IMG/VR virus record: IMGVR_UViG_2703718789_000001
Span: 1-8,034 of that record
Direction: 5' to 3' (one strand)
Length of the DNA: 8,034 nucleotides
Source of the DNA: a virus
Taxonomy: Duplodnaviria > Heunggongvirae > Uroviricota > Caudoviricetes
A program made the position numbers. Positions 3,001 through 6,000 of this stretch are shown here, in pieces (position 1 is the stretch's first letter; every line of letters starts with the position of its first letter).

Positions 3001-6000
3001 TTGGCAACATCCGTTCCATAAAGATGCGCCAATAGCTCGGTGGTTATGACAGGGATCTGGTTGTGGGTAATCGGGGAAAGAGTTTCAACTGCGATTTTGG
3101 TGGCCATAAGATGATCCTTTTTCTTTGTGAATCATCACCACCTGCGACGCCAATCGCTTGGTGGTGAACTGTGCAGGGTTGGCGTAACCGGGAAAAAGGA
3201 ACCGGCGCGGATTGCTCCGCCCCCACACAGCCCACCATTGAGATGTGACTGTGCAAACGACAATAAAAAAGACGCTGGCGCGTCTGTTGTCGCCTTTTTC
3301 ATCCGGGACGCCAATCCCGACGCCAGATTTTGCTGGCGTGTGAGGAATATAGCCCCGGATAAATCATCGCGTCAATCCCCTTGTATTCCTCGCACGATGT
3401 CTTAGCCACCGGATATCCCACAGGTGAGCCGTGTAGTTGAAGGTTTTTACGTCAGATTATTTTGGGATTGGCTTGCGTTTATTTCTGGAGCGTTTCGTTG
3501 GAAGGTATTTGCAGTTTTCGCAGATGATGTCGGTGATACTTCGTCGCGTCATTCCTCTTGCCTACGTTTCACATCCCGGTACTCACAATCATCTGGAATC
3601 GTCAGCCGCATCCCCTTCCGATGCGCCCACTGGTCAATGTCTGTCAGATATTTATGCATTTCCCCGATATCAAGCTGGCGCGTTGATTTAACGCATCGCG
3701 TAATATTAAAAATCGTCACCTTTTTTACCGGACAAAATATATCTTTTAGCCACTCATGAACCTCTTCAGGCGTGAAGTTTTCAGCAGAAACAGCAGATAA
3801 CTGTGCGGCTATTTCTGTATTCCACATCCACAGAAGACTGTTTTGTGACAATGTACGCTTCTCACGGTACTCAGATATTTTTATGCGCCAGCGTTTTCCG
3901 GTTTTAATTATTTCTTTAAGGATTTCCCAGAATTGTGATTTATTAGTTTCGTGCAGAATAAAATCATTCATCATCAGTCATCAAAATCGAGTTGTTGGAT
4001 AATTCTGTTGCGCTGAAACTCATTGTTGAGTCTGAACAACCGTCGAAGAACACGGTCACGCGGATAGCGCCGTGCGGCAGGTGAATGCTCATACAACTCA
4101 TCAAGCGGCAAACTGGACGATGAACGATACCGATACCAACGCACCAACTCTTCACGAAAATTAGCCCTGACAAGCTCAGCTATCGTACTCATTTCTTAAA
4201 GCCTCCAATCCCTCTCCCCCAAATAAAAAGGCCTGCGATTACCAGCAGGCCTGTTACAAGCTCAGTGATGTAGATGGTCATTGCTTCATCTCCCCTTCCA
4301 TTTCATCAATGTCAACGTCATCAGGAAGATGGGAACAATACGCTGCTATACCATGATGATTTATCTCATACCCTTTGAACGTTACCATCTGGCGCGTAAT
4401 CTCAACTTCGTTCAGGAATCCGCCATCGCATAACTGCCTGGCTATTTTCGATTTGGTCTGGATTATTGGTAGTGCCTGTTCTTTCAAAGCGTATGATATT
4501 TGTGCATCCCATGCCTTTTCGAGAATGGCTAATTGTTTTTTATTCATTTAATACTCCGTCACGTTTTCCTGTCGCCACGCCTCGTCATATTCCGATTTCG
4601 GCATATTGGCGATGTAGCTATATGGCGATCCTGATTCAAGTTGCAGGAACTGGTGCGATTGCTCGTCAAGGAACAACGGGACACCACCTTCCCAACCTTC
4701 GCCGTTACGTTGTTTTTCAAGCATCAAAACAGATGCCGGAGATGCCAGTAGCTGTTCGTCCTTCTCTGACATCTTTTCACCACTCTGAACTCTCTGTAAC
4801 GCTCTCTCGCGAGCCTTGTTACGCCAGATGATGAAAAGGTTGTCTGTCAGGTCTGTTATCGCTCCAGAGCCTTTTACGTCCATTTTCCCGGTTGGTTTTT
4901 CTTCGCTGTCTCCTTTTCGCGAGTGAGTAACGAGAATGACGTGGGAGTTTGTTTTGTTTTTGAAGTCGCAAATCGAGTCAACAAACGCCTTCTGCCCGTT
5001 ATAGTCATCGTCGCCTATGCCACATTTCATCAGGCTGTCGATGATGAATAACTGGATCCCGTATCGGCGGCGAGCGTAGTCGAATATTTCGATCAGCCTG
5101 TCGGCTTTCGCCGTTCCGGTCAGGCCAAACACCCAAAGTCTTTCGTCATAAAATTTAAATGCAGAGTCAATTTCCAGCAATGGAGGCATCTTGCAACACG
5201 TTGCCTGACGGGTAAGGCGCTTAAGGAGAATACCAGGCTTCAGCTCAAGTGACGCGATGCACGTCTTCACACCCTGACGCATTGCCTCAAGTGCCATATG
5301 CCCGACAACCTCGGTGTTATGCGTCGCCACATATCCCCTGGTTACATACAGGTGGCGAGGGTGATCGACCATAATACACAAGCATTCTGCATTGCCGATT
5401 TTTTCAACATTCCTGACGAATACCCCACAGCCCTCGAATCGATGCGCAGTTAATCTGCCATTGAGTCGTGGTGAACGGATGGCCTCCCTGATTTCTCTTG
5501 TCAGTCTGATTCTTGCCTCGTATGAATCCATCCCATGCCGCTTATCGTCCTTGTATGTGTATGTCACGCCAGTTTTAACTCGCGTCCGGCATGACCCGCC
5601 GAGTGAGTTAACCAGTTGAACAACCCCATTGCGCAGTTCTTCACTTGCTGAGGAAAAAACAAGCGTTCCATCCTTCTCGACATACCCATCCGTTTCAAGC
5701 AGACCACACAGCATGCCTATACGCGTTGATTTATTTGCGGAAAAAAACACACGAGGGATGAATTTGTTTTTTGCTGTGCACCCCATTAGTCCATAACCTC
5801 GCAGGGTCTCCATGAGTGGATTTGCCTGACCACGCGCCGTTGATATCAGCCAGTCCTTACCATCTCCAGAGAAGTTGTAATCAGGCAGTTCAGCCTTCAT
5901 ACGCTCGATCATGTATGGCTCGACGTTTGAAAACTTCACGCTCCCATTGCTAAGACTACCATCCCCGAGAAGGGAGCCGATAACCCATGCTAATGGCTCT

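Follow-up and report, generated by a model that had tools for sequence, protein, structure and literature searches.

The closest described counterpart of the locus analysed here is the tR2/NinA region of phage lambda (positions 40567-40647; Kroger & Hobom 1982, as cited in Li et al. 2016, PMC4824070), in which a short reading frame encoding 26 aa, ninA, follows ren, runs over the hairpin of the terminator tR2 and leads into ninB. Li et al. reported termination efficiencies of up to ~0.9 for TR2 and described the start site of lambda NinA as 'not weak', a property that they deduced indirectly from the reduced expression of an upstream reporter. Expression of this reporter was halved with an active NinA start and recovered upon mutation of the ribosome-binding site (RBS) or of the AUG codon, and translation of NinA decreased termination by only ~10%. 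In P22, ninA (a 26-aa CDS, AB426868 34610-34690) directly follows the helicase gene 12. Leader-peptide attenuators, e.g. that of pyrBI, also consist of a short translated ORF laid over an intrinsic terminator hairpin. Their likeness to tR2/NinA is in layout only and, unlike those attenuators, tR2 is expected to be controlled by N antitermination rather than by the position of the ribosome.

We analysed a stretch of 8,034 nucleotides (hereafter called the window) that corresponds to positions 1 to 8,034 of the IMG/VR record IMGVR_UViG_2703718789_000001, a virus of the Caudoviricetes. The window was not found as one piece in complete E. coli genomes, the best match covering 87% of it at 97% identity. 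Its genes are arranged in the order primase-helicase, orf89, tR2/NinA cassette, DUF7301 and NinB (Table 1), and this layout is an ordinary one for lambda-like and Shiga-toxin phages, in which tR2/NinA is already known. The original prediction had described three tightly coupled ORFs between the replication genes and ninB, the first with an acidic tail and the last Arg-rich, and all these features were confirmed, with the ORFs on the minus strand and their boundaries unchanged. The TAA stop codon of the primase-helicase gene (4550-4548) abuts the orf89 start codon (TAA-ATG, 4550-4545), ATGA overlaps place the NinA start codon on the stop codon of orf89 (4281-4278) and the DUF7301 start codon on that of NinA (4192-4189), and a TGATG overlap at 3974 joins the DUF7301 stop codon to the ninB ATG. 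Each of the three ORFs is preceded by a Shine-Dalgarno motif located 6-9 nt upstream. Further away, an interruption suspected in the O gene (7562-7843) was ruled out, since its frame stays open up to the edge of the window, collinear with phi24B O.

Table 1. Features of the interval between the primase-helicase gene and ninB, with their positions in the window; Shine-Dalgarno motifs were read from the sequence.
Feature	Position	Strand	Description
Shine-Dalgarno GGAG of orf89	4554..4557	-	6 nt 5' of the ATG
orf89, 89 aa	4278..4547	-	Slot between the replication genes and tR2 (ren slot in lambda)
Shine-Dalgarno GGGGAG of NinA	4290..4295	-	8 nt 5' of the ATG
NinA mini-ORF, 30 aa, MTIYITELVTGLLVIAGLFIWGRGIGGFKK	4189..4281	-	phrog_5907, E 1.4e-17, 26/27 profile positions
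Conserved 73-bp tR2/NinA cassette	4209..4281	-	Common to lambda (40567-40639), P22 and many Stx and Salmonella phages
Predicted tR2 intrinsic terminator	4221..4252	-	Hairpin AGGCCTGC-TGGTAATC-GCAGGCCT (4252-4229; 8-bp stem with 6 G-C pairs, 8-nt loop), then tail TTTTATTT (4228-4221)
Shine-Dalgarno GGAGG of the DUF7301 gene	4202..4206	-	9 nt 5' of the ATG
DUF7301 gene, 72 aa	3974..4192	-	PF23975, 90.6 bits (cutoff 27; residues 1-64 of 65 profile positions); phrog_1785, E 6e-33; slot between tR2 and ninB

We propose, with a probability of about 0.78, that three modules make up the interval, which belongs to the early-right (pR-type) operon in a lambdoid Stx prophage similar to phi24B, and that one of these modules is a tR2/NinA cassette that would relay ribosomes over the terminator. 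orf89 would be one of several alternative genes for an optional slot before tR2. The RNA hairpin and U-tract of the cassette would halt polymerase unmodified by N and let N-modified polymerase pass, and DUF7301, one of several alternative small genes for the slot between tR2 and ninB, would be made only after antitermination, in lytic growth.

The top-listed site of the terminator scan is on the coding strand inside the 30-aa ORF, where it had been overlooked in the original prediction. The minimum-energy fold contains the same hairpin, and the 42-nt segment around it has a folding energy of -15.7 kcal/mol. Hairpin and T-run are identical to those of lambda, positions 4254-4221 of the window reproduce exactly the TR2 oligonucleotide that Li et al. 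used, and over its 73 bp the cassette shares 95.9% DNA identity with lambda 40567-40639, in the ren-ninB gap, and 94.5% with P22. In Nil3, the bases of the cassette carry two annotations, NinA and tR2; in P22 they are annotated as ninA and in g341c as a terminator. In these three phages and in lambda, as in the window, tR2 is located after the replication genes, which ren may or may not follow, and before ninB. The ORF itself matches the phrog_5907 family, and its first 24 residues are those of P22 and lambda NinA, lambda differing only at position 9 (V/I). As in the window, the ATG of lambda NinA is found 29 nt before the hairpin and forms an ATGA on the upstream stop codon, but the last 6 codons differ, and the 30-aa form of the window follows orf89 and leads into DUF7301. 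P22 ninA has the same cassette, overlaps and PHROG family, and differs by its C-terminus and by codons 2, 3 and 8, in which the changes are synonymous. On sequence grounds, the 30-aa ORF is ninA itself and contains the lambda tR2 intrinsic terminator; of the three ORFs initially reported as unrecognised, the larger two are those without known function. By analogy with lambda, tR2 would stop unmodified polymerase in this phage and N-modified polymerase would read through, the N/nut region being outside the window.

To describe the conservation of the cassette, we compared 95 copies of NinA/tR2, which correspond to 30 variants. Covariation indicates that selection has maintained the hairpin. Across 21 variants, 98.8% of the cells of the hairpin are paired, versus 25-61% in slid controls, and four pairs are kept as G-U after a one-sided change. 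Two pairs have changed on both sides (C-G to G-C and G-C to A-U), compensatory changes that come from one diverged lineage of two related sequences, L017 and L099, and that may represent a single evolutionary event. At 57% DNA identity, these two copies have the hairpin in the same register (-14.8 and -15.1 kcal/mol, respectively) and retain an ORF of 27 aa. L099 was obtained by pattern scans for diverged cassettes; of the four metagenome matches, L100 and L101 were discarded as chance matches inside long unrelated genes. A search for related loci from one of our alignments yielded three loci.

Conservation of the hairpin raises the question of the frame written over it. It might be incidental, with the terminator alone functional and the 30-aa ORF a by-product between two closely packed genes, and we regard this as the best-surviving alternative, albeit an improbable one. 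In HK022 and Stx2_16002, the ORF has lost its 5' half while hairpin and T-run are kept, and the lack of a NinA start in two natural variants indicates that the ORF is dispensable in at least some contexts. The length of NinA ranges from 20 to 37 aa with a variable C-terminus, one variant having its stop codon directly after the T-run, and in a diverged copy five of the eight codons over stem and loop (codons 11-18) have changed non-synonymously with pairing kept. In addition, the ORF is unannotated in most genome records. Against an incidental frame, the ATG is kept in 93 of the 95 copies together with the frame and the overlaps, also at 57% DNA identity, and the copies that we compared show stop/start overlaps as a rule. 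The ATG has a canonical Shine-Dalgarno motif before it, changes 5' of the hairpin show a modest synonymous bias (6-7 synonymous versus 4-5 non-synonymous, P ~0.03-0.05), and in lambda the NinA start drives initiation, as was deduced indirectly (Li et al., PMC4824070).

Our preferred reading, three modules with a ribosome relay in the middle one, accommodates both the hairpin and the frame. Since the hairpin is written within a short reading frame whose start site would be functional, we infer that on read-through transcripts ribosomes would be handed over the terminator, and that the nin genes would remain translationally coupled. Being nearly invariant, the cassette is probably also used as a shared homology patch for the exchange of modules among lambdoid phages.

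A different role for the overlap of tR2 and NinA would be that of a 'fuse', which we consider doubtful. A stopped transcript would end in the NinA frame without a stop codon, and such a non-stop mRNA would recruit tmRNA-dependent ribosome rescue, with decay of the upstream replication-gene message. Cited in its support are the halved upstream reporter of Li et al. and the joint conservation of frame and hairpin at 57% identity. If it were true, the replication genes, along with ren or orf89, would be tied to N antitermination via mRNA stability and not only via read-through.

NinA may also be viewed as a functional small membrane peptide, a single hydrophobic helix whose target would be a membrane protein or the integrity of the membrane, and which the terminator merely overlaps. 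A short membrane helix could be formed by its segment ITELVTGLLVIAGLFIW, which is hydrophobic and of sufficient length, a Y-I-x-E-x-x-T-G-L…F-I pattern is kept in the diverged copies, and the synonymous bias of the 5' half is in line with a selected peptide. However, the hydrophobic codons are largely set by the G+C-rich stem and the T-run (GGC CTG CTG … CTT TTT ATT), the stem evolves by compensatory change at the expense of the peptide, whose C-terminus is not conserved, and no match to a family of known function was found. The nin5 deletion moreover removes the region and leaves lambda viable, and altogether we hold a membrane function to be unlikely. Our result is chiefly a correction: what appears to be an unknown hydrophobic membrane peptide of 30 residues is, as read here, lambda tR2 written in the NinA frame. 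Because the codons of stem and T-run (GGC CTG … CTT TTT ATT) translate as Gly, Leu, Phe and Ile, small hydrophobic ORFs are worth checking for embedded terminators in annotation.

The genes on either side of the cassette vary. We found it in 21 upstream and 25 downstream contexts, in agreement with the proposal that the interval is a variable slot of lambdoid phages. In the optional slot that follows the replication genes and precedes tR2, we saw orf89, Ren, g341c gp48 or no gene. orf89 and DUF7301 occur together in only five of nine cases, and DUF7301 is also found after five other kinds of upstream gene. As the flanks reassort freely and a strong terminator lies between the larger genes, the interval consists of three independent modules and is not one system or functional cluster, contrary to what had been suggested. 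The terminator would split it into two expression regimes, with orf89 expressed with the replication genes and DUF7301 in need of antitermination, which further argues against one system of three genes. A promoter scan of the interval revealed no convincing promoter, and in the phi24B transcriptome table the 'ninA' row rises 71-fold upon induction (ninB, 69-fold; ninG, 124-fold); a function of the interval in the lysogen is unlikely because of this lack of a convincing promoter and because the phi24B 'ninA' RNA rises only on induction. PADLOC and NCBIfam searches with the three proteins gave nothing meaningful: NinA and DUF7301 have no PADLOC match, and the sole match of orf89 is partial (12.5 bits, E 0.016). 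An accessory cluster for exclusion or host modulation, made up of all three ORFs and active in the lysogen, is an idea favoured by a variable slot that holds ren in lambda and by two proteins without known function, but it is highly improbable given their independent reassortment, the terminator of ~0.9 efficiency (lambda data) between the larger genes, and the PADLOC, promoter and transcriptome results.

The family matches of the larger ORFs, to phrog_2239 for orf89 and to Pfam for DUF7301, indicate that both are real genes; they are widespread in phages and not related to each other. The homology searches and structure predictions envisaged at the outset placed all three ORFs in families (phrog_2239, DUF7301 and ninA) and gave winged-helix and helical models, and they assigned no function to the larger two. 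orf89 matches phrog_2239 with an E-value of 3.6e-62. Its family comprises 244 representative clusters, and the gene is present in over 100 Stx and Salmonella phages that have been sequenced. The predicted structure of orf89 has a winged helix-turn-helix fold, with weak Foldseek E-values (at least 0.014); in the model, helix 1 and the wing are separated by a single short helix, and the protein ends with the acidic tail PDDVDIDEMEGEMKQ. The fold is predicted to resemble MarR/PadR-type winged-helix domains, whereas at the sequence level orf89 does not belong to MarR, PadR or other curated HTH families. None of 50 family members matched an HTH family of Pfam, and orf89 itself had no match in NCBIfam or among PDB sequences. 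According to this model, orf89 is probably a small winged-helix protein that binds nucleic acids. For a family of 244 clusters with a confident winged-helix model, nucleic-acid binding is a starting hypothesis, which represents modest new information.

Lambda Ren (96 aa, annotated 'Ren-like exclusion protein') is similar in size to orf89 and occupies the same optional position, immediately before tR2/NinA, but the two have no detectable sequence relationship. Homology of orf89 to Ren was rejected (hhalign probability 0.3%; Ren absent from the BFVD structural matches), as was homology to g341c gp48 (hhalign probability 0.2%). A possibility still weaker than the 'fuse' is that the orf89 family might represent unrecognised small winged-helix regulators that functionally replace Ren.

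In the DUF7301 protein, 14 of the 72 residues are Arg, and the family alignment has an invariant core, YPRDRVLRRL. The AF2 model is all-helical (helices 4-25, 30-36, 38-41 and 44-69), with moderate confidence (pLDDT 71), and our best guess from this model is that DUF7301 is a basic helical protein that may bind nucleic acid or a host protein. A match to P22 Cro (1rzs, E 2.3e-7) was an artefact of one sequence, P0058, a chimeric protein with residues 1-40 of Cro joined to the C-terminus of DUF7301, and it vanished when this sequence was removed. In 933W, the match lies under a 'Lar-like restriction alleviation protein' label, which we also rejected, as that CDS starts 37 nt in and in another frame, and is an extended call of the adjoining lar gene. 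Frame analysis favours DUF7301, with 8 synonymous and 6 non-synonymous changes among copies in its frame, versus 2:12 and 4:10 in the other frames. We found no paper mentioning DUF7301, vb_24B_14 or vb_24B_15 in the literature. Its equivalents are 'Orf6' of 933W, H0102 of VT2-Sakai and vb_24B_15 of phi24B. The lar gene found between DUF7301 and ninB is missing in the window. The window protein matches the Pfam family over its full length and is 94% identical to the common E. coli form of DUF7301, and the two forms differ at their C-terminal ends (…QQLDFDD versus …RSLDFK) because of a mosaic junction near position 3997 of the window.

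The window represents a lambdoid phage's early-right operon, with all its long ORFs on the minus strand. The three small ORFs between the replication module and the nin genes have the sizes, the acidic tail and the arginine richness initially described, and their tight coupling was borne out, with junctions TAA-ATG, ATGA, ATGA and TGATG and Shine-Dalgarno sequences 6-9 nt before each ATG. Their sequence is essentially that of phi24B: positions 3997-4650 share 99.5-99.7% identity with the Stx2 phages phi24B, Min27 and Stx2a_F403. The records of these phages list all three as hypothetical proteins, with the label 'ninA' on the 30-aa ORF in phi24B. 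The observation behind the original prediction, that of three uncharacterised genes, is correct and its interpretation needs revising: the outer two are independent, common and still-uncharacterised accessory genes, but the middle 'gene' is an already-known regulatory element, the lambda terminator tR2 inside the NinA mini-ORF.

Features of the window, in gene order along the minus strand
Feature	Position	Strand	Remarks
O-like replication initiator, C-terminal part		-	runs off window edge
Tandem copies of GGTGGGGCAGGAGCTG[A/C]CC	7985-8034	-	inside O gene
35-aa ORF (MKSKIKSLLVAGYNHGWLSISFVDFWFKNLNLRES)	7451-7558	-	spans O-P junction
Primase-helicase, 968 aa	7454-4548	-	with intein
Intein, 342 aa	5316-6341	-	primase-helicase residues 372-713; LAGLIDADG homing-endonuclease signatures
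89-aa ORF (orf89)	4547-4278	-	
30-aa ORF (NinA)	4281-4189	-	
72-aa ORF (DUF7301)	4192-3974	-	
NinB	3974-3549	-	followed by ORF-free gap
ORF-free gap	3107-3457		upstream of ant
Promoter-like site	3375-3346		
c4-a1b1 target sites	3352-3300	-	Rfam 50.1 bits
isrK	3339-3265	-	Rfam 78.6 bits, E 5e-16
Terminator-like site	3285-3270		
C4 antisense RNA	3242-3157	-	Rfam 74.3 bits, E 1.5e-13
Ant-type antirepressor (ORF6N/P22_AR_C)	3107-2433	-	
Terminator-like site, second-listed	2395-2416	-	just past ant, ahead of 135-aa ORF
135-aa ORF, NinF-like ORF, Roi/KilAC antirepressor, NinG		-	in this order

The 30-aa ORF is the lambda tR2/NinA cassette. Its codons 10-21 read AGGCCTGC-TGGTAATC-GCAGGCCT then TTTTATTT on the coding strand, which is the top-listed site in a terminator scan of the window, and the hairpin is present in the minimum-energy fold. 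The 73-bp stretch that begins at the ATG and ends shortly after the T-run (4281-4209) has 95.9% identity to lambda 40567-40639 and 94.5% to P22. The equivalent stretch forms the ren-ninB gap in lambda, whereas it is annotated as a 26-aa ninA in P22, twice, as NinA and as tR2, in Nil3, and as a Rho-independent terminator in g341c. Positions 4254-4221 are identical to the TR2 oligonucleotide of Li et al. 2016 (PMC4824070), who reported termination efficiencies of up to ~0.9 in vivo. In that work, the initiation site of NinA, which lies upstream of tR2, was judged 'not weak' because expression of an upstream reporter dropped and was recovered on mutation of the RBS or the AUG. Translation from the NinA start cut termination by only ~10%, and the tR2-terminated transcripts are non-stop messages for the NinA ORF, with upstream reporter expression halved. 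The literature, too, uses the name ninA and places it within nin5, a region that is dispensable.

A comparison of 95 cassette copies, representing 30 sequence variants, addressed both layers of this element. The ATG is kept in 93 copies, almost always overlapping the upstream gene's stop codon, and in most copies the stop overlaps or abuts the next start. The C-terminus and length of NinA are variable (20 to 37 aa). Upstream of the hairpin, 6 of 11 changes are synonymous by single-site counting, or 7 of 11 when the context of a linked CTT>TTG change is taken into account, a bias that favours the NinA frame (P ~0.03-0.05) and is suggestive only. As for the hairpin, 98.8% of stem cells are paired among 21 distinct variants, as against 25-61% with partners slid. 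HK022 and Stx2_16002 keep the hairpin and T-run only; where the 5' half of the ORF would be, they have unrelated sequence that ends in TAA. The question is settled by two diverged copies, L017 from an Intestinirhabdus alba prophage and L099 from an IMG/VR contig: frame and terminator are both kept, since these copies retain ORF and hairpin at 57% DNA identity to the cassette of the window. Each encodes a 27-aa ORF (in L017, MIAYIAETLTGLSVTVAFFICIRNRVR) whose overlaps are unchanged, and a same-register hairpin of -14.8 and -15.1 kcal/mol, respectively (-15.7 in the window). In two stem pairs both bases have changed (C-G>G-C and G-C>A-U), and others persist as G-U pairs; of the eight codons that overlap stem and loop, five carry non-synonymous changes. 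The double stem changes come from one lineage and may therefore represent a single event. On a less likely reading, the overlap of frame and terminator would act as a non-stop-mRNA 'fuse' that makes N antitermination a determinant of how stable the replication-gene message is.

In the HK022 and Stx2_16002 copies, the tR2 element looks like a bidirectional terminator from its sequence, because the replacement ends in …AACAGATAA, so that the hairpin is followed by TTTATCTGTTTT on the opposite strand too. The tR2 copy of phage PhiR63_2 matches the canonical cassette only as far as a point within the T-run; an annotated IS200-family transposase gene starts ~140 bp downstream, a loop base is altered and the NinA frame extends to 37 aa.

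We classified the flanks of 94 of the 95 copies. Upstream are found P22 gp12-type helicase (24 copies), Ren (22), VT2-Sakai P-type helicase (15), primase-helicase (13), orf89 (9) and g341c gp48 (9); downstream are NinB (37), DUF7301 (29), 933W L0091-type genes (9), a 90-aa gene of PM43 type (7), a 68-aa membrane protein of mEpX1 gp49 type (4) and a few others. Nearly all combinations are seen, and the cassette thus joins two variable slots while itself hardly varying, which fits a putative second role as a patch of homology through which modules are exchanged. The idea of one cluster is not supported: DUF7301 follows orf89 in only five of nine cases.

The orf89 product has a match in phrog_2239 (annotated unknown function) and none among the families of Pfam, NCBIfam or PADLOC. 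An exhaustive profile search yielded a family of 244 representative clusters with the signature LxxLE+AFxAEI … QTKSK.A..L...GYL … GY.LT..GR..YC; a Pfam HTH domain was found in none of 50 members. The confident AlphaFold model (pLDDT 90.9, pTM 0.76) runs from a long helix through a short helix and a beta-hairpin to another helix; the acidic tail after it is modelled less confidently. The conclusion is that orf89 is an independent accessory gene, whose small winged-helix product, as modelled, probably binds nucleic acid. It is unrelated to Ren. The gene follows a primase-helicase or helicase gene in Stx and Salmonella phages and Pantoea, while in Intestinirhabdus it comes after an additional 151-aa wHTH gene. 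In Pseudescherichia its neighbours are HNH, MT-A70, NinX and DUF551 genes, and in Cronobacter phage JK004 they are DUF genes.

The 72-aa protein matches PF23975 (90.6 bits) and phrog_1785, and the copies known are all from Escherichia prophages and phages. Its YPRDRVLRRL core is invariant, variation among copies supports the reading frame, and the helical model is of moderate confidence (pLDDT 71). No functional annotation exists for DUF7301; the Cro and Lar-like labels are artefacts. The Cro label comes from protein P0058, a chimera of P22 Cro residues 1-40 and the DUF7301 C-terminus (junction …DAY|PRDRV…), and protein P0032, from one assembly, is a NinA-DUF7301 read-through fusion; each may have arisen by true recombination or by faulty assembly. 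Identity to phi24B-type phages ends at ~3997, inside the 3' end of the gene: its last codons (…QQLDFDD vs …RSLDFK) and the entire ninB belong to a different lineage, and lar, found between DUF7301 and ninB in phi24B, 933W and Sakai, is absent.

DUF7301 should be expressed only from antiterminated transcripts, since it lies just downstream of tR2 without a convincing promoter of its own. Upon norfloxacin induction, 'ninA', ninB and ninG are up 71-, 69- and 124-fold in the phi24B transcriptome supplement. The region therefore behaves like a portion of the induced early operon rather than like cargo expressed in the lysogen.

Strong Rfam matches in the gap upstream of ant (3157-3352, minus strand), with which the promoter-like and terminator-like sites there are consistent, look like a P1/P7 immI-type c4 antisense control unit before the antirepressor gene. 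The second-listed terminator-like site reads AAACCCAGC-TTCG-GCTGGGTTT then TTTATT. The intein interrupts the Walker A motif of the primase-helicase, which reads GVNGHGK|TEVV in the intein-less L017 homologue; Ala takes the place of Cys or Ser as its first residue and Thr comes after it, features that point to a non-canonical splicing class. Smith et al. 2012 described an intein in phi24B P earlier. The 35-aa ORF, whose stop overlaps the P start (ATGA), may be another short coupling ORF; apart from scattered substitutions and a single 3-nt gap, the stretch is alignable to phi24B. The tandem repeats in the O gene, common to phi24B, are probably origin iterons.
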